Source: an uncultured Clostridia bacterium
GTDB lineage: Bacteria > Bacillota > Clostridia > TANB77 > CAG-508
Length of the DNA stretch: 64,000 nucleotides
Reading direction: 5' to 3'
Assembly (NCBI GenBank): GCA_963558405.1
Contig: CAUWGC010000005.1
Span: 833-64,832, forward strand
Shown: positions 3,001 through 53,424 of the stretch, in pieces
Layout: the number at the start of each line of letters is the position of its first letter
How positions within the stretch are numbered: position 1 is the first letter of the stretch
Notes under the pieces: model-generated
The model's input: only the letters and a program-made list of their open reading frames with translations
What the model was told of the DNA's origin: nothing
The model's database searches: none
Program-made: the position numbers and the translations under genes

Positions 3001-6000
3001 TCTCCATGTATATTAGTTATCGCATAATTTAATTGTTCTTCTAAATTTGTGTCTTCTTCTGCTTTACAAGTTGAATCATAGCCATAAGCAGTAGATACCA
3101 TTTCCATTTTTCCTAATATCATATCTGGATTATCTACAAAATATTTATTCATTGTAATATTGTTTTCATCTCTATCAAGATATACCCAATCTGGCATTAT
3201 ATCGGTCAAATTTTCTCTTTTTTGTAAGAAGATAATATCTGATGTTACTTTTGTTCCTGCATTCTTTGTAAAAGTATTATCTGGTAATCTAATAGCACCT
3301 AAAAGGTCTGCTCTTTGTGCTAAATACTTTCTAACCTCTGGACTTGCTTTATCCATTGTTCCTTTTGAAGTAATAAATGCAATTACTCCTCCTGGTCTAA
3401 CTTTATCTAAAGTTTTAGCAAAGAAATAATCGTGTATTAGAAAATTATTTTTATCATATCTTTTATCATTAACTTTGAAATCTCCAAATGGCACATTTCC
3501 TATTGCTATATCAAAAAACGAGTCTGGTAAATCTGCTTTTTCATAACCTTGAACTTTAATATTTGCTTTTTGATATAATTGTTTTGCTATCTTACCACTT
3601 ATAGAATCTAGTTCTACTCCATATAGTTTTGAACTTTGCATTTCTTGTGGCAACATTCCTAAAAAATTTCCTGTACCACAACTTGGTTCAAGAATATTTG
3701 CTTGTTCAACACCCATGCTTTTTAGAGTGTCATATATTGCATTTATAACTACTGGTGGTGTATAAAAAGCAGTTAAAGTAGAAGCTCTTGCAGACTTATA
3801 TTCTTCATCTGTAAGAATTTCTTTTAATTCGTTATATTCTTCGCTCCAATTATCTTTACTTTCATCAAACACATCTGGAAGTCCACCCCAACCGACATAT
3901 TTCGACAAAATATTCTGTTCTTCAGAATTTGCTAATCTATTTTCATCTTCTAACTTATGTAAAAGTTTTATTGCATCAATATTTCTTCTTACTTTTTCTT
4001 TTAGTGTACCTTCTCCTAATAATTTATCATCAATGTGATAATTAATCTTTTCTTGTTTAGGTTTTGGTTCTACTATTTCCTGTTTATTAGTAGTAATTTC
4101 TTTTTCAAAGTTTTTTTCATTACTATGATAAAGTGAAACTGCTCGTAAATAACTTTCGTTTCTCATAATTGGATAATGTGCAGTTTCTAACATTGTTTGG
4201 TCTAATAAAACAATTTCATCTAATTCTTTGTTAATAGCCTCAACTCTATATTTTCTATCACTTTCTAAATAAATAATTTGTCCTATTTTAAATTGTGTTT
4301 TTGGATCTTCGCTTAATTCTTTTACTGCACTAATGGCATTAGCAATTATTTGTGTTTCAACTCTATCAGCAATATCTTTTAGTTCTGCTTCTTGCTCTAA
4401 ATTATCAATAAATTCTTGACTAACTTCTTCTAGGCTTGTATCTGCTAATTCTGTAATATCAGTAAACTCTGCTAAATCTTTTCTTATATCATCTAAAGTC
4501 TTTTTGTCTTCATTTTCTGAATATTCTAAAAGTCCACCATCAATTTCTGTTCCCCTGTTGTCATATATTGCATAATAATATCCCTCATCGTTTGTATGAA
4601 AATGAAAATAATTTCCATTATTCAACTTATAATTTTTTTCAATATTTATACTAGATATATCTATAAAATCATTTGTGTTTTCTTTTAATCCTCTATCTAG
4701 CATCCATTTTTCTTTTTCATAGTCATTTTCTAACCATTCCTGGTATTTTATTTTTTCTTCATCATTAAAGTATCTATCTAATCTAATAATTTCTTTAAGT
4801 CTTTGTTCAACTTTACTCCAATTTATTAGTAGTTCTGCTCTATCATCTTTATAACCCTTATATAGCTTTATTCCTTTGCTATCGTGTTCTTGTCCAAAAT
4901 CAGCACCATAATATGCAGAACTTGAGCCTCCTATACCATATTCATGTTTTAGAAATATTATATTTTCCTTTGATGATAAGCTCCTTTTAAATTGTTCATA
5001 AATTCTATATTTACTATGTGAAAAATTGCTGCCCTCAATAAGTGTTTTATCTATCATTTCTTGAGTAAAAGAAAAAGCAGGAGTATTTTCTACTTCTGCT
5101 TGTGCTTGAATATTATTTATTTGTGTATCTACACTTGGCAACTCTTTAATTGGTGGTACATAAGTATCTTCAAAAAGATTTAATTGTAAATTAGCTCTGA
5201 CATTATCATTTCTTCTGCTTGGTTCTTTATTGAGTTCATTGCTTGTACCCAACTCATTTGATTCTCTCTTTTCATTTCCTCTGTTATTTGGTTCTTCTCT
5301 GCTAGACTTGTTATTATCTGTTTCATTCTCTTTTGAGCTGTTTGTTCTATTTCTCCTAAATGTTCTTCCATCTTTCCATCTAACATTAATTCCTCGTATA
5401 ACCCTCTTTTGTGTTCTTTTAGGAATTTCTCCCTCATTCTTGAGAATCCCCCCTGTGCCATTTTCTTCGTTTTTGGTAATGCTACTTGTGGTATTTGGTA
5501 ATCTCCCATTTGATTGTATGTTAATTCTATCATAATCATTTCTCCCTTCATTATTTTTTTCTTCATTATTATGATAATTTATTTTTTCATTATTAACAAA
5601 TGTACGATTTGTTAATTTGTAATTTTTTTCATAATTTATAACACTAGAATAGATTTCTCTTAATTCTTGTTCTGCAATATCACTTATTGCTGCACCTAAT
5701 CTTGAAACAACTCTTTTATTATTAAAACTACTAATCATTTCAAAATCTGATACATTAAAATGTTCTGTTGGTTCAATACCACATCTTTTCATTGCCATAT
5801 ATGATATTGATTTTGCAAGTAATACAATAAAGTTTCCCTCTAAATCTATATCTTGCATTCCCTCTAATAAGCTACCATCTAAAACATCTTTTAAATCAAC
5901 TAAATAATCTTGATAATTATCTTCTACTAAATTTATAGATGCAGAATATATTGCTTCTGCTAAATTAGATTTAACTTCTAAATTTCCAAAACTATTTTCT

Positions 6001-7360: not shown

Positions 7361-10300
7361 CTATTTATCTTTATTTTGTTTACGCTTAATTATAATATAA
7401 GCTATTCCTAGTAAAGATAGAATAATTGAACCTGCAAATAATTTTATTTTGCTTTCCACTCCTGTTTTAGGAACTTCTATCTTTTTATTTTCAAAAGTAA
7501 ATTCTATTGTATTTTCATTTTCTTCTACTTGTGTATCCTCTACAAATATACCTTTGTCATTGATTTCTACTTTAACAATCTTGCTTGATAATTCATAATC
7601 TTTTGGTGCTTTTATTTCTTTAATGTAATATGTTCCATATCTTAATTCTTCGAATAAAGCTGTTCCATCTTCTGAATTAGATTTAACCTCTTTAATAAGT
7701 TTAGTACATTCTGGATCTTCGTATATTGCAAATATGAATTTGTCTTTAATAACTTCTTTTGTTTCAGTATCAATCTTAATTACCTTTACATTTTTTAGTA
7801 TTGGCATATCTTTCATTTCTATTTTTTGAGTTTCTTTATCATTTGTTACTGTGAATTTTATTTCTTCAGTAATTTCATAACCATAAGGAGCAGTAGTTTC
7901 TTTTAAGATATATGTTTTACCTTCTTCTAAACCTTTTACTTTATGAGGTTCTTTAGTAGATGTCCATTTATCTATTGTGTTACCATCTTCATCTATAACT
8001 TCTAGTTCTGCACCCTCTAATTCGTTTCCATTAGTTATATCTGTTTTTGTTATTTCTACTAATTTATCAATCATAACTACTTTTTGTGTTTCTTTATCTG
8101 GTGTTACAATAAACTCTACATCAGTTGCTTTTACATAAGAATCTGCAACTATTTCTTCATGTAATGTATAAGTTTCTCCCTCAACTAAATTTTTGATTTT
8201 GTGTGGTTCTTTACCAGATACCCACTCATCAACTACTTTGTTGTATTTATCTAATACTTGAATTGTTGCACCTTCAATTTCTTTTCCTGCAATATCAACT
8301 TTGCTCATTTCTACTATTTTGTCTATCATTTCAACTTTTTGAATATCTTTTTTATTTGTAACTTCAAATTCAACATCTGTTGCTACAACATATCCATCAG
8401 GAGCATATTCTTCATGTAAAATATATTTTTTACCTTCTTCTATTCTATTTATGTTATGACTTTCTTTTGTAGATGTCCAACTATCGATTACATTTCCGTC
8501 TTTATCAGTAACAACAATTTCTGCACCCTCAATTTCTTTTCCACCTATATCTGCTTTTGTCATTGTTACTATTTTATCTATCATTTTAACTTGTTGTACT
8601 TTTGTTGTACTTTCAACTTTAAATTCTATTGTAGAAGCTCTTACATATCCATCAGGTGCAATTTCTTCTTTTAATTTATAAGTTTTTCCAACTACCAAGC
8701 CCTCTATTTTATGAGTCTTTTTAGTAGATGTCCATGTATCAACAACTTTATTATTTTCATCAATAACAGATAATTTTGCACCTTCAAGTTCATCATCTCC
8801 TGTTACAGATTTTTTAGAAAATTCAAACATTGTTGTATCATTAGATATATCTTTAATATCTTCATATACCTTTGTTGTTAAGTCTTTTTGTTCACATTTT
8901 ACTTCATATTTAGTCCAATTTAAAACTAATCCGTCTAAAGTTTTTGTTTCCTCTAATTCATAAGTTCCCATAGGTAAATTATCAACTTTTAAATTACCTT
9001 TTTTATCCAAATTATATTTCTTTATTTCTTGACCTTTAGTATATATTTTGCTTCCATCTGCATAATCAATAATATCTTCTTTTGCAGTAAGTTTGAATTC
9101 AATACCTGATAAATCAGAGGTATCAACCAATGATGTGTCAGCATCTTCTCTTAATGCTATTGTTTTATTTATAATTAAAGTGCCTGTAGGTTGTTCATTT
9201 TTCATTAAAACTTCTTTAATAAAATCTTCATCTTGATCTTTATCATAATCTCTTATTCCTTTTATTTCAAAAGTAACTGGTTTTTCTAATTGTAAGAAAC
9301 CTTTTGGAGTTTTTATTTCATAAATTGCATAACTTCCAACTGGTAATTGTAAAGGAGTAACAACTGAACCTTTATCATCTTTGTTATTAGTAAAGCTTTT
9401 ATCTGGTACTATCATATTATCTGCATTTGTTGTAAATGAAGTATATGTTGTACTACCAATTTTTTGTGAAATTGATTCTCCTTTTTTCCATATTATTTTT
9501 CCTGTTGCTCTATCGTAAATATCTTTTTCAGCTTTTATTTCAAAGGTTGTACTTGTCAATGTAACAACTTTTCCAGTTTTTAAATCTTTTTTGATTAACT
9601 TTATATATGCTTCTAATTGTTCATTATTAACAACAATATGTTTTGTTTTTTGTGGTATTTCTTTTATTTCACTTTCGTCTTGAGTAATAGAAAAATAGAA
9701 ATCACTTGCACTTTCATAATCTTTTGGTGTAACTGTTTCCTTAACGATATATTTACCATAAGGTAAGTTCTTTTGTGTGTATGCATTACCATCTTTATCA
9801 GTTACTAATACATCATAAGTAGGAGCTATTTTTTGAGCTTCTGCAACTCTTTTAGTATCGACATTAACTTTATTTCCGTTTTCATCAACACCATTCCATA
9901 CTTCCGCATAAGTGTATCCTTGTGAATATGCTTTTTCTACTGCTGAATTTAATTTAATTGTAAATTCTGCACCTTCAAGACCAGGTGTTTCTCCTGAATT
10001 TGCTTTTATTCCTGATTTAAAGATGTGTACTCCCATTTTCTTTACATCTTCATTACTTGTAGTCTTATTTGCTATAACTTTTGTATGTTGGTCTTTATAC
10101 TCCAAATTTACAGGATATTCCGTTTTATCAAGTAAGTACCCAACAGAAGCTTTATCTTCTTTTACTATATATTTTCCAAGAGGTAAATCTTCAACAGGTG
10201 TTGTGTTGCCAAACTTATCCATTGTTCTTGTTGCTACTAAATCTCCTTTTGAATAATACTTTTTACTTTTAGCTACATTGTATATATCTTCATTAGCAAA

Positions 10301-11896
10301 TACTTTATAAACTGCATTTTCTAGTGTAGCATCTCCTTGTGCCATGCTTCCTGTTTCACTATCTTTTTTAATTATTTCAATAGAACCTTTTGGCTCTGTA
10401 TCAACTACTCCTTCAATTTTTAATTCTATAACTGGTGTAGTAGAATTAACATATTGAATATTAGCATTAAATATTGTTTCATTTAATAAATATCCTTTAG
10501 GTGCTTGTGTTTCATAAACTATATATTTACCTACTGGAATATCACTTAATGTTGCGACACCATCTGAATTAGATGTTATTTTAGCAACTACTTGTCCTTT
10601 AGAATAGAACTTTTTAGTTTTCGCAACATTATATATATCTTCATTTGCCTTTACTTCAAATTCTGCTCCTGCTATTTTATCATTATTTGTACTTACTTTA
10701 TAAATCTTTATTTGTCCAGTAGGTTCGTTATTTTTAAATGTTACACTAGCTGTTTGACCACCTGCTACATTAACTCTTTGAATACTTGTATCTAATAAAT
10801 AACCACTAGCAACTGATTCTTCTTTTACAAAATATGTACCAGGTTTTAGTTTTTCAATTAAAATTTTACCTTCATTATTTGTATTTGCTTTCTTTACTAA
10901 ATCAGTACATTCATTATTTCTATATAGACCAAAAACACAATCTGAAACTGCATTTCCCATATTATTTGTTTTTCTAATTTCTATTTTTCCACTTTCAACA
11001 TGAACTGAAACACTAAATGCTGATGGATCAACATAGTTAGAAAATATTAAGTTTTGAACACTACCTGAAGTAAATGTAAAATACATATAATTTGACATTG
11101 TAGAACTATTATATGCACTTCCATTTGGCATTAATTGATATAGCCCATATTCTCTTGAATTAAATGTTACATTTTCTACATTACAATTATCAGATATTGT
11201 TATTACTAAATCATTACTTCCTTGTGTATGGCTAAATGTTACTCCATCTTTTGATTGTGAAAATGATTGATATGCTGATAATTTTCCATTATTATCTGTT
11301 ATCACTTTTCTATCTCCAATAGCAACACTTTGTGTTGAACCATTAAAAGATGTATTTCCATGATACTGATTATAATATCCTTCAGCTTCTGCTACCCAAT
11401 TAGCATAGTGTCCTGATGACATGAAATTTCCATTCCATGAATCTCTTGGGAATGCATCAAATGAACTATTTATATTGTTATGTATATACTCCCATACATA
11501 TTGTTGAGTACAACATGCTGCTCTATATGCTTCATCTGATGATGGTAACCCTAAACCATATTTCATAGTATAACCAAAATATATCATTTCAGCTATTTTC
11601 TCGTATTGTGGTAAGTTTTGTTTATATTGAACATAAAAATCTCCGTTGAAAGTATATTCACTTCCGTTAGGAGATTTTACACCCTTTTGACAACAAAAAG
11701 CTATATAAGTTTGACCATCATAAGTAGCATAATGTAATTCGTGTCCTACTTTTGCTAAACTTCCTGATATTACACCAAATTGTGCATTTGAATTCATATC
11801 AGTAATAAATGCTGCAAAAGTATTAATTGGCAAAGATGTTAATAGCAATAATGCTAAACATATAATTGCCATAAATTTCTTTGTTTTACTTTTCAT
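7361..11896 (-). CDS. Cell-wall-anchored surface adhesin: signal peptide, thioester-domain-like N-terminal region, multiple Cna-B/SpaA-type repeats, C-terminal VPKTG sortase sorting signal
   Basis: Signal peptide MKSKTKKFMAIICLALLLLTSLPINTFAA. Cys (IAFCCQKG) and TQQYVWEY (TQxA-V-W-like) motifs typical of thioester domains. Repeated blocks GAEFEVKANEDIYNVAK..., EGAEIVVTDKDGNVIDSWTSTKE.... C-terminus EVPKTG + hydrophobic helix + KRKQNKDK. Confidence 0.8.
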   Translation of the reverse strand: MKSKTKKFMAIICLALLLLTSLPINTFAAFITDMNSNAQFGVISGSLAKVGHELHYATYDGQTYIAFCCQKGVKSPNGSEYTFNGDFYVQYKQNLPQYEKIAEMIYFGYTMKYGLGLPSSDEAYRAACCTQQYVWEYIHNNINSSFDAFPRDSWNGNFMSSGHYANWVAEAEGYYNQYHGNTSFNGSTQSVAIGDRKVITDNNGKLSAYQSFSQSKDGVTFSHTQGSNDLVITISDNCNVENVTFNSREYGLYQLMPNGSAYNSSTMSNYMYFTFTSGSVQNLIFSNYVDPSAFSVSVHVESGKIEIRKTNNMGNAVSDCVFGLYRNNECTDLVKKANTNNEGKILIEKLKPGTYFVKEESVASGYLLDTSIQRVNVAGGQTASVTFKNNEPTGQIKIYKVSTNNDKIAGAEFEVKANEDIYNVAKTKKFYSKGQVVAKITSNSDGVATLSDIPVGKYIVYETQAPKGYLLNETIFNANIQYVNSTTPVIELKIEGVVDTEPKGSIEIIKKDSETGSMAQGDATLENAVYKVFANEDIYNVAKSKKYYSKGDLVATRTMDKFGNTTPVEDLPLGKYIVKEDKASVGYLLDKTEYPVNLEYKDQHTKVIANKTTSNEDVKKMGVHIFKSGIKANSGETPGLEGAEFTIKLNSAVEKAYSQGYTYAEVWNGVDENGNKVNVDTKRVAEAQKIAPTYDVLVTDKDGNAYTQKNLPYGKYIVKETVTPKDYESASDFYFSITQDESEIKEIPQKTKHIVVNNEQLEAYIKLIKKDLKTGKVVTLTSTTFEIKAEKDIYDRATGKIIWKKGESISQKIGSTTYTSFTTNADNMIVPDKSFTNNKDDKGSVVTPLQLPVGSYAIYEIKTPKGFLQLEKPVTFEIKGIRDYDKDQDEDFIKEVLMKNEQPTGTLIINKTIALREDADTSLVDTSDLSGIEFKLTAKEDIIDYADGSKIYTKGQEIKKYNLDKKGNLKVDNLPMGTYELEETKTLDGLVLNWTKYEVKCEQKDLTTKVYEDIKDISNDTTMFEFSKKSVTGDDELEGAKLSVIDENNKVVDTWTSTKKTHKIEGLVVGKTYKLKEEIAPDGYVRASTIEFKVESTTKVQQVKMIDKIVTMTKADIGGKEIEGAEIVVTDKDGNVIDSWTSTKESHNINRIEEGKKYILHEEYAPDGYVVATDVEFEVTNKKDIQKVEMIDKIVEMSKVDIAGKEIEGATIQVLDKYNKVVDEWVSGKEPHKIKNLVEGETYTLHEEIVADSYVKATDVEFIVTPDKETQKVVMIDKLVEITKTDITNGNELEGAELEVIDEDGNTIDKWTSTKEPHKVKGLEEGKTYILKETTAPYGYEITEEIKFTVTNDKETQKIEMKDMPILKNVKVIKIDTETKEVIKDKFIFAIYEDPECTKLIKEVKSNSEDGTALFEELRYGTYYIKEIKAPKDYELSSKIVKVEINDKGIFVEDTQVEENENTIEFTFENKKIEVPKTGVESKIKLFAGSIILSLLGIAYIIIKRKQNKDK
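7620..8720 (-). repeat. Four tandem ~90-aa Cna-B-type coding repeats inside the adhesin gene
   Basis: Repeated peptide pattern E(L)EGA.(L/I).V.D..(G)N..D.WTSTKE.HKI..L.EG..Y.L.EE.APDGYV.AT..EF.V seen four times in the translation. Confidence 0.55.
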
Positions 11897-15394: not shown

Positions 15395-16429
15395 TTATTT
15401 TTTCTTTAAATCTTTTGAATAATATATTAAATCAGTACAAGTTAATTCTCCATCTTTTATTTCTTCTTTATAATTATCTATAAAGAAATTTTTAATTGTT
15501 TTCTCATATTTATCAAATCCCTGCTTAACATAGAAAGGAATATTATTCTCTGTTGTTCCTACCAACATTCTGTCATATTTTTGTTTATAATTACCACATA
15601 ATGATTTTAAAAGTGTTTTTGCATAACCTTTATTTCTGTAATTTTCTTTTGTAACTATGTTCTTTAACTCTAATGTTTTTCTATCAATGTGCAAAATAAC
15701 TGCAATAGAAATTAGCTCATCTTCTTTTTTTAATGCATATACATCAGAATCGTTCAAATACTTATGTATCATGTCTTTTGAAGGATCTGCCTCTAAAAGT
15801 AAGTCTATATAATCTTCTTTATTTTCTATTTTTTTAACCTGCATTCTAGGTTCTTTTGGTATCTCGTAACCATTGGTATTAGTGGTTTGTATAGGATTGC
15901 GGTTATAATATCTCATCTCCTCAGAAAAAATACATCCACAATACTTTTGCCTATATAACCCTAACTCTTTTGCTTTTTCTTGTCCTTGTCTAAAGCCTAC
16001 TCTAAAATCTCTTTCTAAAAATTCTAATCCATACTTTAAAGCTATTTCTTTTCCTACTTTTATTATTCCTTCATGATTTTGGTATGGACTTACTAATAAA
16101 GTTGTTGTAATTGTGTCATATCCATGTTCTTTTGCATATTTAGCTGTTTGTTCTAATCTTATTTTATAACAATAGTTAATACATCTATTTTGTAAATCAT
16201 TTATTACATTTTTGCAAAAATTTTGCAAACCATATTCTTCTTCAAAAATTACATTTACTCCTACTGATGGTGCATATTCTTTTAATGTATCTCTTCTCAT
16301 TTTGTATTCAGTATAAGGATGTATGTTTGGATTGTACCAATATAATGTTGGTTCTATATTTTCTTTTCTTAATGCTTCTATGCAGTAAATACTACATGGA
16401 GCACAACATGTATGCATTAATAATTTCAT
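15395..16429 (-). CDS. queH: Epoxyqueuosine reductase QueH (DUF208) fused to a C-terminal GNAT acetyltransferase domain
   Basis: N-terminal HTCCAPCS cysteine motif and YWYNPNIHP typical of QueH. C-terminal ~150 aa carry RNKGYAKTLL (GNAT motif A) and YVKQGFDKY. Confidence 0.7.
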   Translation of the reverse strand: MKLLMHTCCAPCSIYCIEALRKENIEPTLYWYNPNIHPYTEYKMRRDTLKEYAPSVGVNVIFEEEYGLQNFCKNVINDLQNRCINYCYKIRLEQTAKYAKEHGYDTITTTLLVSPYQNHEGIIKVGKEIALKYGLEFLERDFRVGFRQGQEKAKELGLYRQKYCGCIFSEEMRYYNRNPIQTTNTNGYEIPKEPRMQVKKIENKEDYIDLLLEADPSKDMIHKYLNDSDVYALKKEDELISIAVILHIDRKTLELKNIVTKENYRNKGYAKTLLKSLCGNYKQKYDRMLVGTTENNIPFYVKQGFDKYEKTIKNFFIDNYKEEIKDGELTCTDLIYYSKDLKKK

Positions 16430-16470
16430 TCAACTTTTCCTCCTATTTCAACTATTATTATATATTAGTT

Positions 16471-18291
16471 TTATATTTTTTCTAATATACCTATTGATTC
16501 ATTTTCGAATATGACATTACTATCTTTTAAAATTTCTTTTTTATTAGCAATATAATAAATTGATTTTTTAAAGTATATAATATAATCAGCTTGACTAATT
16601 GTATTATCTATATTTATAAGTTTTTGTTTAAAAAAATGTATTCCTCTGTATCCTTTTGTATTCTTATCATTGTTTACATACTCAATAATCTGATATGTCC
16701 AATCTAGTTGCTCGGGATTTCCAACTATTTCTATCTTTTTAGAAAAGTCTAAATTTTTCTTTGCATATTCTAATCCTTCTATATCATTTTTATTTAAGTC
16801 TTCATTATTAAATATAATAGTTTTATTTATATTAAAAATTTCCATTACACTTGTTATTTTTTCATTTTCATTTGTTTTTTTATTTTCTAATTTTACGTCT
16901 TTAAAAACAAGAGCAATAATAAGAAGAAGTATGTATATTCCAACATAAGCTATAGGTATATACTTATTTTTTTGTCCCAAATGCATAAATCCTTTAAAAG
17001 ATGTATATATCACAATTCCCCAAAATGCATAATAAATTTTAGCAAGATAATATGTAGAAACTATTCCTATTTCTGATGCAATAAATAATGTTATTATATA
17101 TAACGTACAAAAAATAACTAATAAACTATTAAATACATTTTCTTTTCTATATTTTATTAATTCATATAAAGTAAACGGAATCCATAATATTATATTAGAA
17201 TATAAATTTCTATATATATATCCTTCTTTTGGAAATCCTTTCAAAACATCAGTACTATTTTCCACCTGTTTTACAATATTTTGTACATTAAGAGAATATA
17301 ATTTGGGCATAAAGTGATAAATATATCCCATTATAAATGGAATTATAAGCGTTATAATAATTGTAAATATAATACTTTTATTAATTAATTTTTTATATCC
17401 CAAGTAAATTATATATATAAATATAGCAACATACGTAAAAGGTACAAACAAATAATAAGAACAAAACAATTCAAAATTTAATAAAAATAAGGATAATACC
17501 CAAAAGAAATATGATATTTCTTCTCTTTTAAATAACTCCATTGTTAATATAATTGCACTTATTATAACTAATGACATACTTAAATACTCAAATCCAAAAA
17601 GTAAACTGTTAAGCGGATATCCTAATACGTAAATAATACTAACTATATATGCTAAGATTCTTTTCCAAGTATCTTTTGAAAAATGAGATAGACATGCATA
17701 CATTACATATGCACTGATAAATAAAATAAATATTTCAAACCATATAAATACAGTATAATATCTTGTTTGCGGTACAAATTGTGAAACTGCTTTTATTAAC
17801 AATCCTGAGTTTACATAGGAACCAAATTTAAAGGTTGTATAGTTAAATAATTTATCTGTGTCTTGATTAGCTATGTGATTACTTTTTGCAAATGTTTTTG
17901 CTGCACCAAAATGAATAGCCGAATCTTCACATTCATATTTAATTTCAAAAGGATAATTAAAATTAAATATACAAACAACAAAAACAATTATTGCTAATAT
18001 TGTAATATAAATAAAGTCTGAATATACAACTTTATAAGATTGTATATTTTTGCTTTTAATTGCATATACTGCCAAAATTGTAGCAATAATAATATTTATT
18101 ATTGCTAATAACCACAAAGAAATTGGTATTTTAAAAAGTGTTAATAAATAACATATTAGTGCATTATAACACAAAAGTAAAATAACGCTTAATGCTAACA
18201 TTATTGATATATTGATTTTTTTATCTGTTTTTTTTACTACTAAAAATGATATTAATAATAATAAAATTGTGCTTAAATATAATATCCCCAT
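16471..18291 (-). CDS. Polytopic integral membrane protein (about 13 TM helices + C-terminal soluble domain); possible GT-C-type glycosyltransferase
   Basis: Hydropathy read from the translation; adjacent to a PMT/ArnT-like GT-C gene. Confidence 0.5.
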   Translation of the reverse strand: MGILYLSTILLLLISFLVVKKTDKKINISIMLALSVILLLCYNALICYLLTLFKIPISLWLLAIINIIIATILAVYAIKSKNIQSYKVVYSDFIYITILAIIVFVVCIFNFNYPFEIKYECEDSAIHFGAAKTFAKSNHIANQDTDKLFNYTTFKFGSYVNSGLLIKAVSQFVPQTRYYTVFIWFEIFILFISAYVMYACLSHFSKDTWKRILAYIVSIIYVLGYPLNSLLFGFEYLSMSLVIISAIILTMELFKREEISYFFWVLSLFLLNFELFCSYYLFVPFTYVAIFIYIIYLGYKKLINKSIIFTIIITLIIPFIMGYIYHFMPKLYSLNVQNIVKQVENSTDVLKGFPKEGYIYRNLYSNIILWIPFTLYELIKYRKENVFNSLLVIFCTLYIITLFIASEIGIVSTYYLAKIYYAFWGIVIYTSFKGFMHLGQKNKYIPIAYVGIYILLLIIALVFKDVKLENKKTNENEKITSVMEIFNINKTIIFNNEDLNKNDIEGLEYAKKNLDFSKKIEIVGNPEQLDWTYQIIEYVNNDKNTKGYRGIHFFKQKLINIDNTISQADYIIYFKKSIYYIANKKEILKDSNVIFENESIGILEKI

Positions 18292-18329
18292 TTTTTCTCC
18301 TTAAAATATTACTTTTTTAATTTTTACTT

Positions 18330-20009
18330 TTATGGATAATAATAAATAATATAATCGCCTACTTTTTCATTTAAAAAATTTCTTTCTTCAAATTCTTGTA
18401 TTAAATTTTCTGAAGGATATTTTAATACATAAACAGTATCATAATTATATTCTTGTATGTTATAAAAATAATATTTATCATAACTTGACAATTTATTACC
18501 TGAATTTCTTCTAATGCTATTTTTAAATTCTTCTGGTTTCATTTTATTTGATATTAATGTATATATATATGGTTCTTTTTTGTAATAACTTGAATTATGT
18601 GTTCTTAATTCCATATGTACTTTTTTATCTTTATATTTATCTTGTTTATTTATATAATCCGTAATTTCTTCTATACTATCATCAAAATAGGTATTATAAG
18701 TAGAATCTATATTGTTTTTAAATTCATAAAAGTAATATATTTCAAAAATAATAAAATGTATTATATATAATGCTACTAATAGCCACAATAATTTTGGAAA
18801 TTCTTTAGAAAAATATACAATACCTATCATTGTAAAATATATCATTGGTATAAAAATAGCATTTGCTTTATTTACTTTAGGTTCTATAATTATAAGCATA
18901 CATATAACTGAAGCTATAAATTGGAATAACATTATACAATCAAATTTAAATTTTTTCTCTTTTATATTTTTACATACATTTATAATTGATTCCAATAATC
19001 CAATTATAGTAAAAGGAATAGAAATATAGTATAGTGTTCCAAATCCATCTGGAACATTATAAATCATGTTATCTCCAAAAAATAATATTATTGGTAAATA
19101 TAGATTTTCTTTAATATTTTTAATACTTATTTCTCCAATTCTATACATTGGTAATTCTGGAATACTAAAAAATGGAATATTAATTTTAGGAACTATGTGG
19201 TTATTTAGTAAAATCATATATATTAATGGTAACGCAAATATAAAAATTGGTATTCCAAGAAAAATAATATTTTTCCATGTTATCTTTTTTAAATATAACA
19301 AATATACTAATGTCATTGCTAGAAAAATAGGAATTATTATATAAGATAAAGCATATGTATATAAAGTAATTCCAATAACTATTCCCGCTCCAACATATCC
19401 TAAAGGACTTTTTGCTTTACTAAAAGCAAAAAGTGAGAATACTAAAAATGATGATAGTAGATTACAATCTAATCCCCATCTTGCTTGCATTATATGCCAT
19501 GGATTTATTGCCATTAAAAATAGAAAAATTATTGCCATTTTAGTATTTTTAAATTTCTTTACACGAAAATACATTGTAATCATTGCTAAAATAGATATTG
19601 TAGCGATGGGTAATCTAATTGCCCAAGTATTTATTCCAAAAATCCCCACAAAAATGCTTGTAATATATGTGCATAAAGCACTTTGTCCTTGTCCAAAATT
19701 TGTAAAGTATAACGGATGTTCCTCTCCATAACGATCTGTTCCATATTTTGCAATGCAATATGAATCATATGCCATTCCTGCTTCGTCTATGTGAAGTCCC
19801 TTTGGAATATTACCAATTTCCACTACTCTAACTAAAATTCCTATTGTTAATATTATAATGAATAATCTTTTTTTATTTTTTTCTATCCATTCATCTAGTT
19901 TTGTATTAATATCATTTTTTTTAGTTACTTTTTTTATAAATTGAATACAAATCATTAATATAATTATAATAATTGAACATACCGATACTGTTTCTATCAA
20001 ATTAATCAC
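18330..20009 (-). CDS. GT-C family membrane glycosyltransferase (PMT/ArnT-like, GT39/GT83)
   Basis: First-loop motif GLHIDEAGMAYDSY (DE motif), followed by 10+ TM helices. Confidence 0.6.
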   Translation of the reverse strand: MINLIETVSVCSIIIIILMICIQFIKKVTKKNDINTKLDEWIEKNKKRLFIIILTIGILVRVVEIGNIPKGLHIDEAGMAYDSYCIAKYGTDRYGEEHPLYFTNFGQGQSALCTYITSIFVGIFGINTWAIRLPIATISILAMITMYFRVKKFKNTKMAIIFLFLMAINPWHIMQARWGLDCNLLSSFLVFSLFAFSKAKSPLGYVGAGIVIGITLYTYALSYIIIPIFLAMTLVYLLYLKKITWKNIIFLGIPIFIFALPLIYMILLNNHIVPKINIPFFSIPELPMYRIGEISIKNIKENLYLPIILFFGDNMIYNVPDGFGTLYYISIPFTIIGLLESIINVCKNIKEKKFKFDCIMLFQFIASVICMLIIIEPKVNKANAIFIPMIYFTMIGIVYFSKEFPKLLWLLVALYIIHFIIFEIYYFYEFKNNIDSTYNTYFDDSIEEITDYINKQDKYKDKKVHMELRTHNSSYYKKEPYIYTLISNKMKPEEFKNSIRRNSGNKLSSYDKYYFYNIQEYNYDTVYVLKYPSENLIQEFEERNFLNEKVGDYIIYYYP

Positions 20010-50026: not shown

Positions 50027-51589
50027 TTATATTTTTTCTATAACTATATTTCTTCCTTTTTTATTTTTCTCTATCTCATCAGCTCTATATGAGCATATTT
50101 TGTATTGGTTTAAATTATCAAATCTTATTATTACAGCTTTAGTATAATGATTTTCTTCTGATGGTGGATTTTCTTTAATTATAATACTTGCTTTAGTTTG
50201 ATTTAGTGTTTCAAATGTTGTCATAAATCCTATACCACTTCCACCTGTATCTTTGTGTGTAGTAATAGGCTTAGTACCTAATTTTACTAGTGTTCCAATT
50301 TCGAACTCTATTCCTGTGTCGTAAATACATAATTCATACTTTTTGTTTTTTACTCCCAATATTACAAAGATTTCTCTATTATTATTTTTAGAACTATTTA
50401 CTGCAATTATAGCATCTCTAATATGATCACCTATCATTGTTTCTAGTTTATTTTTAGGTATTATATTGTTTACTAAATAATATATGTTTCCAGAAATTTT
50501 TAAATTAAATTCAATATTATTGTCATAACACTCCTTTTGCATATATTTAAACATATTATCTATTTCTTGTATTCCGGTAACTTCTAACTCGGGTAATGTT
50601 TTTATATCCTTAATTTTTTGAGAATATTCATTTGTTAAATCTTGTATTTTATTTAATAAACTTAATTCTTCTGCAGTTTCAGTTTTCATATTTTCTTTTA
50701 CAAACATTTCTAATGCTTTTTGCCTATTATAGAACTCATGAGTAATTTTGCTAATATTGTACTTTTCCGCTTCTAAGTCTTGGATTTGGAGATTTTGCTG
50801 TTTTATTGTTTCTTCATATTCAAATAAAGCATCATTTAATAATTTTTGTTTATAATACATTGTTAGTGTCTTATAAATTATTATACACATTGTAAAAGCT
50901 AATATAAAAAATGTAATTAACAAATTCTTTCTTATTTCTTCTATACTTTCGAAAATAGTTCCAAGTAAGCATGTAATTAATATTATCGCTATACTGATAT
51001 TAATTAAGACAATATCTGCAAAATCACTATTAAACTTTTGTTTTATAAAATCTAATCCGTTTTTTATTTTTCTTATTCTTACTAACAAATATAAAAATAT
51101 AAATTGTAAAAGTAATATAAAGAATGTATTAATGTATAAATTTTCAACTTTAAATACTATATAAGGAAAATATAATGTTAATGTACTTATAACTAAACAT
51201 ATAGAACAAATAGCATATGAAATTATCACTATAACTAATGTATTTCCTATTTTCTCTTTAAACAACCAACTTAATATGTTTACATATACTAATCCCGCAA
51301 TTACAACGGATAATAATGAACTAACATTAAATTCAATATACATACAAATAAATGTAACTATTATGTTTAACACATAAATTAAAATTTTTCTCTTTATATT
51401 ATCATACTTTATGTTTGATAATTTTTTAAAAGAATAATATACATATAAATTCATTATAAATGTTTTTAAATAATATATACTTATGTATTTTTGATTATCC
51501 ATATTTCTCCTCGCTAATAGTATTATTATATATAAAAAAAATGCAATAATCAATATAATATGTTTTTTTAACAATATTCTTTTGATCAT
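50027..51589 (-). CDS. Polytopic sensor histidine kinase, AgrC/HPK10-like
   Basis: 6-7 N-terminal TM helices, H-box-like ISKITHEFYNRQ, G-box GGSGIGFMT at the C-terminus. Confidence 0.65.
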   Translation of the reverse strand: MIKRILLKKHIILIIAFFLYIIILLARRNMDNQKYISIYYLKTFIMNLYVYYSFKKLSNIKYDNIKRKILIYVLNIIVTFICMYIEFNVSSLLSVVIAGLVYVNILSWLFKEKIGNTLVIVIISYAICSICLVISTLTLYFPYIVFKVENLYINTFFILLLQFIFLYLLVRIRKIKNGLDFIKQKFNSDFADIVLINISIAIILITCLLGTIFESIEEIRKNLLITFFILAFTMCIIIYKTLTMYYKQKLLNDALFEYEETIKQQNLQIQDLEAEKYNISKITHEFYNRQKALEMFVKENMKTETAEELSLLNKIQDLTNEYSQKIKDIKTLPELEVTGIQEIDNMFKYMQKECYDNNIEFNLKISGNIYYLVNNIIPKNKLETMIGDHIRDAIIAVNSSKNNNREIFVILGVKNKKYELCIYDTGIEFEIGTLVKLGTKPITTHKDTGGSGIGFMTTFETLNQTKASIIIKENPPSEENHYTKAVIIRFDNLNQYKICSYRADEIEKNKKGRNIVIEKI

Positions 51590-51615
51590 TGCATTATCTT
51601 AATTTTATTTTAATA

Positions 51616-51657
51616 TTATCTTAACCAAAAAGCTAACCATTCCCAGAAACTCATCAT
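51616..51657 (-). CDS. Candidate 13-aa mini-ORF MMSFWEWLAFWLR with strong SD, between the regulator and kinase genes
   Basis: GGGAGGTGA 8 nt upstream of ATGATG; TAA stop; located after the regulator-gene terminator and 26 nt upstream of the kinase start. Confidence 0.3.
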   Translation of the reverse strand: MMSFWEWLAFWLR

Positions 51658-51692
51658 GAGAATCACCTCCCGGATATTTTTTACAATAAAAA

Positions 51693-51725
51693 AATATCAC
51701 TTATACGTGCTTGTATAAGTGATAT
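51693..51725 (-). terminator. Rho-independent terminator downstream of the response-regulator gene
   Basis: ATATCACTTATAC-gtgcttg-GTATAAGTGATAT perfect 13-bp hairpin followed by TTTTTTTATTG on the minus strand. Confidence 0.5.
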
Positions 51726-51775
51726 TGGGAAGTGCAATTTTGTTACATTTTTTTATTTTTTATTCTATAAAATGA

Positions 51776-52600
51776 CTATATCTCCTTTTTTATTTTATCT
51801 GCATAGTAATATATTAATTCTGTTGGGGTTGGTACGCCTGTTTCGTAGTTTATTCTTGCTGTATAGTATTTGGTTAAATCTTCTATTGCTGATATTCTCC
51901 ATGCATGAAGTATTGCATTTTGCATTGCTCTACTTATTGTACTATTTGATTTTTTATATTTACCTACTAAATATTGTATTATTGATATTTTATTGTATTT
52001 TTCTTCATTTTTTATAATAAAGAAAATAGAGTCAAATAAGTATTTTCTTCCTTGCAAGTGTGAACTTATTCCTATTAATTCTAATTCTTTATTTATCTTT
52101 TCTGCTATTATGTCATCTTTATTATCTATATCAGTTTCAATTTCTGTAACTGTATTACTTGTTTCATATTCTCTTAATAGAACAATGGTATCTATTATTT
52201 TGTTTTGTGAGTAGTTTGTTTGTTTTTTATAAAAGATAAAATCTATTTTATTTCTATGACAAAAATTATATACAGAGTCTGAATACACATTTGTTGTTAC
52301 AACAATGTTAGGAATTTTATTTAATTTTAGCTTTTTGAATTTCTCTATAAAGTCAAATCCACTACCTTCTCCATCTGTTAATTCTAAATCTAAAATAATA
52401 GCATCTGGTTTATATTTATTAACACATTCTATAGCTTTTATTGAAGAGTTTGTAATTGCTACTAAATTAAAATCGTTTCTTTTTTGACTAAGATTTTTAT
52501 AAATATTACATTCGTTTACATCATCTTCTATTAGTAAAATATTTATTGGATTGCTATTCATATTTTTACCACCTTTTGTATTTTTGTCATATTTTATCAT
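51776..52600 (-). CDS. Response regulator with receiver domain and Spo0A-type C-terminal DNA-binding domain (Spo0A paralogue). Probable true start at 52561 (MNSNPINILLIEDD, RBS AAAGGTGG)
   Basis: REC motifs ILLIEDD ... DAIILDLELTDGEG. C-terminus ISSHLQGRKYLFDSI...SRAMQNAILHAWRIS...TPTELIYYYADKIK aligns with the remembered Spo0A C-terminal signature (GYLYLREAI...SRVERAIRHAIEVAWSRG...KPTNSEFIAMVADKLR). Confidence 0.75.
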   Translation of the reverse strand: MIKYDKNTKGGKNMNSNPINILLIEDDVNECNIYKNLSQKRNDFNLVAITNSSIKAIECVNKYKPDAIILDLELTDGEGSGFDFIEKFKKLKLNKIPNIVVTTNVYSDSVYNFCHRNKIDFIFYKKQTNYSQNKIIDTIVLLREYETSNTVTEIETDIDNKDDIIAEKINKELELIGISSHLQGRKYLFDSIFFIIKNEEKYNKISIIQYLVGKYKKSNSTISRAMQNAILHAWRISAIEDLTKYYTARINYETGVPTPTELIYYYADKIKKEI

Positions 52601-52708: not shown

Positions 52709-53023
52709 ATGAAAAAAGCAATTGGAAAAAGAATTAAAGAAATTAGAGAAAATATGGGAATGACTAAAGAAAGTTTTGCAAAGGAACTTGGAATATCTGG
52801 TCAATATTTAGGAATTGTAGAACATGGAAAAAGTTATTTATCCATTGAAAAGCTAAAAGTTCTTTGTGACTTTACAAATTTATCTGCAGATTATATTTTG
52901 TTTGGAAGAGATAATAATCTTATTAGTGATATGCAAAAAATATTATCTGAATTTTCTCCTGAGCAAATAGAAATTGGTTGTGATACCCTTAAAAAATTAG
53001 CACTTTTTATAAAAAATCAATAA
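52709..53023 (+). CDS. XRE-family helix-turn-helix transcriptional regulator
   Basis: MKKAIGKRIKEIRENMGMTKESFAKELGISGQYLGIVEHGK; ATG at 52709 with AGGAG 8 nt upstream. The ORF-track start at 52682 is a TTG. Confidence 0.8.
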   Translation: MKKAIGKRIKEIRENMGMTKESFAKELGISGQYLGIVEHGKSYLSIEKLKVLCDFTNLSADYILFGRDNNLISDMQKILSEFSPEQIEIGCDTLKKLALFIKNQ

Positions 53024-53059
53024 TTTCGAAAGTAATAGTTTGTTTTGAAAATATTATAT

Positions 53060-53088
53060 TGACACTCACTACTCCTTTTGGTAAAATA
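53060..53088 (+). promoter_or_regulatory. Sigma-A-like promoter TTGACA-N17-TAAAAT with TG extension
   Basis: attgacactcactactccttttggtaaaat seen directly. Lies inside the ORF-track call 53059..53424, whose listed start is a TTG. Confidence 0.4.
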
Positions 53089-53115
53089 TGGTATAAAATA
53101 CAATATTTTGCAAAA

Positions 53116-53424
53116 ATGAGTAATTTTATGTTGAAAAAAATACAGAATTTTTTGTTTTGTTTTAAAAAATCCAATAGTATAACAAATATAAACCCTACAA
53201 GTAGTACTAATATTTTAGAATTGCAAACTCAAATAGATACATGGAAAAAAAATGCTAATGAAATACAGTCATCTTTTGATTTTGATATTCCCAATTATAT
53301 ATTAGATGAACTTATTAAAAAAAGAAAACACTTAAATTGTAGTCATGATAATCTTTATTATTTATTAAATTGTGCTGTTATGAATGGTAAATTATCTAGA
53401 ACTAATGCAAATAAAATAAAATAA
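53116..53424 (+). CDS. Hypothetical small protein (start uncertain)
   Basis: Open frame followed by a strong terminator; first ATG after the candidate promoter at 53116; no good SD. Confidence 0.35.
   Translation: MSNFMLKKIQNFLFCFKKSNSITNINPTSSTNILELQTQIDTWKKNANEIQSSFDFDIPNYILDELIKKRKHLNCSHDNLYYLLNCAVMNGKLSRTNANKIK

Follow-up and report, generated by a model that had tools for sequence, protein, structure and literature searches.

The described systems closest to the locus reported here are those of the agr and com type, together with the short peptides of streptococci and the small membrane proteins that act on histidine kinases. The AgrD-type precursor of agr has approximately 40–50 amino acids, with an amphipathic leader, a cysteine or serine for formation of a (thio)lactone ring and an acidic tail. 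ComX, the pheromone of the ComQXPA system, is cut from a precursor of approximately 55 amino acids and prenylated on a tryptophan. Among the streptococcal peptides, XIP has a WW motif, and the exporter PptAB is unlinked to the SHP and XIP genes. MgrB and SafA act on the kinase PhoQ from within the producer cell. Here we describe a 13-codon, tryptophan-rich open reading frame (mini-ORF) lying between a response regulator gene and a histidine kinase gene in an uncultured Clostridia bacterium (TANB77; CAG-508). The DNA analyzed, referred to throughout as the window, is a stretch of 64,000 nucleotides (GenBank assembly GCA_963558405.1, contig CAUWGC010000005.1, positions 833 to 64,832). The predicted peptide is probably a leaderless cognate ligand of the adjacent seven-transmembrane (7-TM) kinase and an exported signal between cells, with allelic types that resemble the pherotypes of agr and com. 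A first-pass annotation of the window had judged the ORF too short for an AgrD-type precursor and, if functional, a different kind of cue, and this judgement extends to the related loci, whose ORFs have 12–18 codons and match no family.

A conserved tryptophan-rich mini-ORF

51616–51657, minus strand: mini-ORF encoding MMSFWEWLAFWLR, followed by a stop codon
51663–51671, minus strand: Shine-Dalgarno (SD) sequence GGGAGGTGA, with the first ATG of the mini-ORF 5 nt downstream

The sequence quoted in the first-pass annotation was found exactly as given on the minus strand, including the SD, the double ATG and the length of 13 codons. The frame opens with ATG ATG (51657–51652), continues with AGT TTC TGG GAA TGG TTA GCT TTT TGG TTA AGA and closes with TAA at 51618–51616. 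An alternative start at 51654 would yield MSFWEWLAFWLR, and the mature product may have either 12 or 13 residues, because most orthologues begin MSFWEW with a single methionine. Three of the 13 codons specify tryptophan, and one glutamate and one arginine leave the peptide approximately net neutral. From its sequence, the product is predicted to be hydrophobic, amphipathic, tryptophan-rich and leaderless. Codons 1–7 make up a conserved half, and codons 8–13 an allele-specific half. On the two strands of the window there are 14 genuine mini-ORFs of 8–30 codons with an ATG and a strong SD, and the only one of these to contain tryptophan is the ORF at 51616–51657, which is listed under both of its ATG starts. 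The element had earlier been called strongly ribosome-bound; the strong SD stands, whereas the binding itself would follow from that SD only, as would translation of the mini-ORF into a peptide.

Related loci were taken from metagenome assemblies (3 close relatives) and from a genome scan (51 species-level loci), and all of them belong to uncultured Clostridia of the gut, among them Clostridium sp. CAG:245 and CAG:780 and metagenome-assembled genomes (MAGs) from mouse, rabbit, ruminant and Hadza samples. Upstream DNA was sufficient in 47 loci, and in 45 of these an intact ORF of 12–18 codons preceded by an SD lies in the interval between regulator and kinase. Conservation of the reading frame in orthologous loci had been set beforehand as the test of the proposal, and the frame is retained here with synonymous changes, in loci whose kinases are 40–80% identical. 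The SD is GGAGGTGA or GGTGGTGA and keeps the same spacing in all loci. The peptide consensus is M-S-F-W-E-W-[LIV]-x-Y-x-x-G-L, with versions in related loci that include MSFWEWLAYWLK, MSFWEWIRYWLG, MSFLDWIRYWFGGGK, MTFWEWIRYIMGI, MTWDEVWEWIRYALGL and MDFWEWLRYWLGL, as well as MSFWEWLRYIAGL and MTLWEWLRYLAGL, which are non-cognate to the window kinase. Cysteine is absent from all but two of the peptide ORFs. A scan of human-gut metagenomes with a degenerate pattern of SD plus MSFWEW added seven further loci with the same layout (seven in total from that scan), and an exact-flank scan of metagenomes for alleles in the window's own species gave no matches.

Across 43 distinct nucleotide versions of the mini-ORF, the second tryptophan of the W-E/D-W motif is invariant (43 of 43), while the codons at conserved residues vary synonymously: serine is AGT in 18 and AGC in 8, phenylalanine TTT in 18 and TTC in 15, glutamate GAA in 21 and GAG in 12, and tyrosine TAT in 25 and TAC in 9, with four leucine codons and all four glycine codons in use. 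Nucleotide entropy at codon positions 1, 2 and 3 is 0.67, 0.37 and 1.02, respectively. The conserved frame, the synonymous variation and the codon-position entropy together indicate that the frame is under protein-level selection and that, as judged from sequence, the mini-ORF is a genuine protein-coding gene. Searches of Pfam and NCBIfam with peptide versions lengthened at the N terminus (ORFs of other loci extended upstream and one padded version from the window) returned no family. Neither the peptide family nor the module is described in the literature searched, which includes the text searched of a large human-microbiome small-protein survey. In one related locus (L010, ~3470–3501), the mini-ORF, the two hairpins that flank it elsewhere and the kinase promoter have been lost, and the kinase ribosome-binding site (RBS) comes immediately after the regulator stop. 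This locus could be a “listener only” variant, in which the kinase is kept without the peptide.

The adjacent kinase and its membrane sensor

50855–51502, minus strand: N-terminal half of the kinase, a 7-TM sensor (residues ~1–216), from hydropathy, the positive-inside rule and AlphaFold2 helices
50027–50854, minus strand: cytoplasmic half of the kinase, with the DHp domain (His255, SKITHEFYNRQ) and the catalytic ATP-binding domain

The first-pass annotation placed the mini-ORF 26 nt before the kinase start codon, a distance that holds only for the ATG at 51589. That codon is merely the first in-frame ATG of the longest kinase ORF, and the 29 extra codons it brings span a terminator hairpin (T2) and the kinase promoter. 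Alignment of approximately 50 homologues, together with the RBS GAGGAG, puts the start at the ATG at 51502 (MDNQKY...), which lies 113 nt downstream of the mini-ORF stop with T2 and the promoter in between.

Hydropathy and the positive-inside rule give the kinase an N-out, C-in topology with outside loops of just 3–8 residues. An AlphaFold model built with 48 sequences (mean predicted local distance difference test score of 79.7) has seven membrane helices, of which TM7 continues straight into the DHp helix carrying His255, followed by the catalytic domain. His255 is invariant in the kinase alignment, and a Foldseek search with the model matched the DHp and catalytic domains of HK853, CpxA, BceS, CckA and others at E ~1e-6. 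The invariant histidine, these structural matches and the short outside loops indicate, at the level of a model, that this is a real histidine kinase whose sensor is essentially intramembrane. In Pfam it matches HATPase_c weakly. The AgrC-type HATPase_c_5 (PF14501) is matched by none of the 48 family members, so the kinase is not demonstrably of the HPK10 type, the label under which it had first been described. A sequence search of the PDB with the kinase profile returned nothing significant, and no homologues were present in phage and plasmid collections. Over 1,500 members of this kinase family, almost all unnamed, are present in public data, and no curated family covers them. One MAG (L012) has a second, paralogous kinase of this family at the start of the locus, a few kb upstream of the main module.

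Peptide tail and sensor vary together in a hypervariable cassette

50813–51636, minus strand: hypervariable cassette comprising the C-terminal half of the peptide, the intergenic spacer and the whole sensor, from sliding identity against L001, L002 and L004

The three contigs used for this comparison belong to the same species as the window. Nucleotide identity to them falls to 40–80% within the cassette (~51636–50813), as against 98–100% in the regulator, the cytoplasmic half of the kinase and the downstream genes. The left breakpoint is located inside the mini-ORF after codon 7 (...WEW|) and the right breakpoint at the end of TM7. Within this species group the peptide ends in ...LAFWLR in the window, ...LAYWLR in L001, ...LRYIAGL in L002 and L003, and ...LRYLAGL in L004 and L005. 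As identical alleles occur in independent samples, this diversity is unlikely to be an assembly artefact.

At least five lineages contain pairs of loci in which the cytoplasmic half is 0.92–0.99 and the regulator 0.93–1.0 identical, the sensor is only 0.26–0.58 identical and the peptides are different. Beyond the window's own lineage, the pattern recurs in at least four others (L006/L007/L043/L052, L025/L028/L044, L037/L038/L041 and L019/L027), with identities of 0.92–0.99 for the cytoplasmic half, 0.93–0.99 for the regulator and 0.28–0.58 for the sensor, again with differing peptides. In both pairs with a sensor identity of 0.90–0.98, the peptides are identical. The sensor of the window is nearest to those of L009 and L012, which belong to another species (0.50, compared with 0.27 to conspecifics), and their peptide, MSFWEWLAYWLK, is the most similar one to that of the window.

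Over 42 loci, peptide distance correlated with sensor distance in a Mantel test (r = 0.44, p = 2e-4), and the correlation persisted once the cytoplasmic half was partialled out (r = 0.33, p = 2e-4), with the reverse partial test not significant (r = 0.11, p = 0.09). When the sensor was divided into predicted leaflet halves, the peptide tracked the outer-leaflet half when the inner half and the cytoplasmic domain were controlled for (r = 0.26, p = 3e-4), and it did not track the inner-leaflet half given the outer (r = 0.05, p = 0.25). Linkage cannot explain this difference, because the two halves interleave along the gene. Hypervariability restricted to peptide tail and sensor matches, in these comparisons, the specificity groups of agr and the pherotypes of comCD and comQXP. 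The proposal that the mini-ORF specifies a short hydrophobic signal for the adjacent kinase gains support from the conservation of frame, SD and motif and from the co-variation of the C-terminal half with the sensor.

Transcription signals around the mini-ORF

51686–51726, minus strand: hairpin T1 (AATATCACTTATAC-AAGCAC-GTATAAGTGATATT) with U-run, intrinsic terminator 3' of the regulator gene
51534–51595, minus strand: hairpin T2 (AATGCAATGATCAA...TTGATTATTGCATT) with U8, terminator of the mini-ORF unit
51525–51553, minus strand: kinase promoter TTGATT-17-TATAAT, sigma-A-type, 10 of 12 consensus matches, with its -35 element within the 3' arm of T2
51732–51747, minus strand: direct repeats TGTAAC-N5-TGCAC with ~11-bp spacing, between the regulator stop and T1

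The terminator that had been noted after the regulator gene is borne out by a terminator scan, which finds in T1 a perfect 14-bp hairpin (51726–51693) followed by a T-run (-16.2 kcal/mol, z = -7.4). T2 has a predicted energy of -19.3 kcal/mol (z = -5.2), and a hairpin is found at the same place in nearly all loci. Both stems are kept across loci through compensatory changes, and their non-Watson-Crick pairs are biased toward G.U over A.C (22:8 in T1 and 18:3 in T2). Because of this bias, the two elements are best understood as RNA structures of the sense strand, that is, as terminators. An interpretation as protein-bound palindromic DNA operators is disfavoured by the same bias. The 3' arm of T1 carries a conserved TG[AG]TAT, which could double as an extended -10 element and which persists in four loci that lack T1.

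Of 46 loci examined, 42 have the combination of TTGATT, a 16–17-nt spacer and TATAAT after the mini-ORF. This conserved promoter indicates that the kinase is transcribed on its own, with the mini-ORF, as predicted from sequence, forming a tiny unit between two terminators. Terminator and promoter are merged into a composite element (51525–51595, minus strand), in which the hairpin always has TTGATT at the core of its 3' arm and AATCAA in its 5' arm, with the U-run inside the promoter spacer and TATAAT next; this order is kept in 42 of 46 loci despite a variable remainder of the stem.

The mini-ORF itself would be transcribed by read-through of T1 or from an activator-dependent promoter using TG[AG]TAT, which are the two candidates. 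Hand-fitted -35 and -10 elements and sporulation-sigma motifs were considered as a promoter for it and found unconvincing. The direct repeats upstream of T1 may be binding boxes of the Spo0A_C-type regulator. Similar TGTCA[CT]/TGTAA[CT] repeats occur at the same position elsewhere, including loci without T1, and repeats of the TGTAAC/TGTCAC/TATCAT type with ~11-bp spacing are found upstream of the mini-ORF in the window (51732–51750), L015, L023, L033 and L037. They recall the tandem “0A boxes” of Spo0A (TGTCGAA). A similar repeat in inverted orientation is located just upstream of the regulator start (~52565–52590).

In addition, pairing is possible between the U-run of T1 and an A-run that is conserved just ahead of the SD (ATATTTTTT-TATTGT-AAAAAATAT, 51674–51697, minus strand). 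The order of T-run, 5–7 nt and A-run is retained in most loci, some of them with matching C/G changes (TATCTTTTT...AAAAAGATA), with covariation that is not clean. A scan of 51300–51900 against Rfam at E up to 10 returned noise only and no known leader.

Regulator and neighbouring genes

51776–52561, minus strand: response regulator with a receiver (REC) domain and Spo0A_C (Spo0A_C 1.7e-15, Response_reg 1.1e-8)
52709–53023, plus strand: XRE-type helix-turn-helix (HTH) protein of 104 amino acids, divergent from the regulator, found in 36 of 44 loci, for which Pfam finds an HTH only
53059–53424, plus strand: small hypothetical protein of ~100–120 amino acids, after the XRE gene, found in 14 loci, with no known domain

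The probable start of the regulator, based on its RBS, is M14 of an ORF that runs to 52600. Against TIGR02875, the Spo0A equivalog family, the protein scores 90 bits compared with a cutoff of 200, and it is therefore to be regarded on sequence grounds as a paralogue with a Spo0A-type DNA-binding domain and not as Spo0A itself. Gene neighbours were clustered over 44 loci. The regulator adjoins in 39 of them, and the conserved module consists of a hypothetical gene of ~100 amino acids and the XRE gene, divergent from regulator, mini-ORF and kinase. No AgrB, ComQ, C39-ABC exporter, peptidase or radical S-adenosylmethionine enzyme is linked to the module in these loci. Downstream, genes for a flavin reductase and an MFS-spermidine-synthase protein are conserved in the window's own lineage only.

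In four loci (L033, L037, L038 and L041), mini-ORF and kinase lie behind ftsH, and both an adjacent regulator and T1 are absent. A VirD4/TraG-like coupling protein of 702 amino acids is encoded downstream in the same four, suggesting a possible connection with a conjugative element. Elsewhere in the window, the region 16000–20000 has a lower G+C content (0.22, compared with ~0.27–0.30 in other parts) and a weaker strand skew, with two large minus-strand ORFs of 606 and 559 amino acids, and a very large ORF of 1511 amino acids occupies 7361–11896 on the minus strand.

Proposed mechanism and alternative explanations

In the mechanism that we favour, the peptide would be translated from its strong SD on the small unit bounded by T1 and T2, whose transcription would depend on T1 read-through or on an activator-dependent promoter overlapping T1. 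It would be exported, arriving at the outer-leaflet face of the membrane either spontaneously or through an unlinked pathway, and would there bind the membrane-embedded sensor, where the conserved head SFWEW would make the contact shared by all alleles and the variable tail (residue 8 and beyond) would set allele specificity, that is, the pherotype. The kinase, made constitutively from its own TTGATT-17-TATAAT promoter, would autophosphorylate on His255 and signal to the REC-Spo0A_C regulator, which may control a regulon and probably the expression of the peptide itself. Binding to the sensor, the sign of the effect, autoinduction and signalling between cells are all proposed steps of this scheme. 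The kinase without peptide in L010 is as expected of a listener.

Several observations weigh against this scheme. No exporter, protease or modifying enzyme is conserved beside the module in the 44 loci. No sigma-70-type promoter is predicted between regulator and mini-ORF, and T1 looks like a strong terminator ahead of it, so that expression of the mini-ORF is presumptive. The co-variation of peptide tail and sensor is partly confounded by their linkage in a single recombining cassette, the lack of phylogenetic independence among the loci makes the Mantel p-values optimistic, and the division into outer and inner halves rests on a topology predicted from hydropathy and the positive-inside rule.

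In a first alternative, the peptide never leaves the cell. A cell-autonomous modulator, unexported and residing in the producer's own membrane, would activate or inhibit the adjacent kinase in a feedback loop that carries no signal between cells. A module without linked exporter or processing gene fits this explanation, as does a hydrophobic, amphipathic peptide next to a sensor that is almost wholly intramembrane with outside loops of 3–8 residues, and co-variation with the sensor is equally expected of a private partner. We nevertheless regard it as unlikely. Repeated diversification of alleles within species combined with their sharing across species is a hallmark of secreted signals (agr, comCD, comQXP), and to our knowledge no private kinase modulator shows such allelic diversification. 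The peptide tracks the outer and not the inner half of the sensor, its 12–16 residues are too short to span a bilayer, and L010 has a kinase without a peptide. It is the within-species alleles shared across species and the outer-half co-variation that lead us to favour an exported signal between cells over a private modulator. Linked hypervariability is also seen in toxin/immunity pairs, and short tryptophan-rich peptides of ~13 residues can be membrane-active, as are indolicidin and tritrpticin. The mini-ORF might on these grounds encode a leaderless membrane-active toxin or bacteriocin, with the variable membrane domain of the kinase sensing the peptide or giving allele-specific protection. 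This is improbable for a peptide that is approximately net neutral, unlike the cationic tryptophan-rich antimicrobials, that at 12 residues is well under the size of known leaderless bacteriocins, and whose module holds no immunity gene or ABC transporter and has as its partner a complete histidine kinase with a cognate regulator.

The first-pass annotation had also offered a regulatory leader peptide, in which translation of, or stalling on, the tryptophan-rich upstream ORF would gate T2 and transcription of the kinase, as in trpL or TnaC. Three tryptophan codons among 13, two flanking terminator-like hairpins and a gene downstream are the features that such a cis-acting leader would have, and arrest peptides too have conserved amino acid sequences. 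The near-consensus kinase promoter that follows T2 in 42 of 46 loci speaks against this role, since the kinase has its own conserved promoter behind the terminator. The stop codon lies 21–24 nt ahead of the T2 stem (24 to the core arm and 21 to the extended stem), and the ORF showed no alternative antiterminator pairing. Rfam gives no known leader, and co-variation with the sensor of the protein encoded downstream is not expected of a leader; we hold this explanation to be very improbable. Finally, the ORF is unannotated, very short and without a database family, as would a chance frame be in a conserved non-coding spacer or small RNA. That explanation is effectively refuted by a frame intact in 45 of 47 loci despite 43 distinct nucleotide versions, by codon periodicity with synonymous substitutions at conserved residues and by an invariant SD at the correct spacing.

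Taken as a whole, we consider it an even call that the locus represents an unrecognised class of Gram-positive signalling between cells that is widespread in uncultured Clostridia of human and animal guts. Such a class would use ribosomal, leaderless, unprocessed, tryptophan-rich pheromones of 12–16 residues that require no genes of their own for processing or export, a new 7-TM histidine kinase family that signals to Spo0A-domain regulators, and strain-level pherotypes that arise by cassette exchange of peptide tail and sensor.

Implications

If the peptide is a pheromone, it would be the shortest gene-encoded one paired with a receptor kinase, and peptide quorum sensing would be possible without AgrB, ComQ or Gly-Gly-exporter machinery. 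It would also point to a peptide-gated pathway that employs a Spo0A-type DNA-binding domain outside sporulation control. As gene callers skip ORFs of 12 codons, the mini-ORF was missed completely by genome annotation, and the kinase start at 51589 that annotation would favour is off by 29 codons. Members of the family are frequent among the uncultured, low-GC Clostridia that live in the guts of humans, mice, rabbits and ruminants, a little-known group. The peptides are cheap to synthesise and their cognate and non-cognate alleles are known, making strain-level communication and interference in the gut directly testable.

Comparison with known systems

Among cis-acting peptides, the trpL and TnaC attenuators differ from this locus, where no competing fold is found at T2 and the downstream kinase has its own conserved promoter. 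MgrB and SafA resemble the peptide proposed here in being tiny hydrophobic products that target the membrane portion of a histidine kinase, but they are single-pass membrane proteins of 47–65 amino acids, whereas the peptides here have 12–18 residues and a 12-residue helix is ~18 Å long. MgrB and SafA are also neither polymorphic together with the sensor nor part of a kinase-adjacent co-diversifying cassette. The SHP/Rgg and ComS-XIP/ComR systems of streptococci share with this locus tiny unannotated genes for hydrophobic, often tryptophan-containing peptides beside receptor genes. Their peptides, however, are re-imported and bind cytoplasmic receptors of the RRNPP family, whereas the partner here is a membrane histidine kinase, and the adjacent XRE protein of 104 amino acids has an HTH as its only Pfam domain, with no tetratricopeptide repeats.

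The double-glycine pheromone systems (ComC/ComD/ComE, BlpC/H/R and PlnA) likewise combine unmodified linear peptides, polytopic kinases and pherotypes. The peptides described here start directly at MSFWEW with no Gly-Gly leader, no C39-ABC exporter or ABC transporter is conserved nearby, and the kinase and regulator families differ. With ComQXPA of Bacillus subtilis, the locus has in common a tryptophan-containing peptide (there an established pheromone), its sensing by a multi-TM kinase (proposed here), and a strong pherotype polymorphism that stays within the genes of the pheromone and the N-terminal, sensing part of the kinase. Unlike in ComQXPA, the whole ORF has 12–16 codons, the regulator is not of the NarL/ComA type, no modification enzyme is linked, and neither the module in the window nor any related locus has a ComQ-like isoprenyl transferase.

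In agr, peptide and receptor differ from those found here. At 12–18 residues with no leader and no C-terminal tail, the peptide is about one third of the length of AgrD, and as most versions lack cysteine, no thiolactone is expected in most of them. The conserved neighbourhood holds no AgrB in 44 loci, the kinase lacks the AgrC-type HATPase_c_5 of Pfam, the regulator has a Spo0A_C output domain compared with LytTR in AgrA, and the peptide gene is separately terminated with the kinase under its own promoter. What the two share is the 7-TM, N-out topology of the kinase and a hypervariable block formed by the specificity part of the peptide and the kinase sensor, with conserved flanks and alleles shared across species. 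The DHp histidine and the GHKL catalytic domain of the kinase, with a receiver-domain regulator alongside, are those of a two-component system. Component by component, the system belongs to neither agr nor com, yet it would work like agr/com pherotype signalling.

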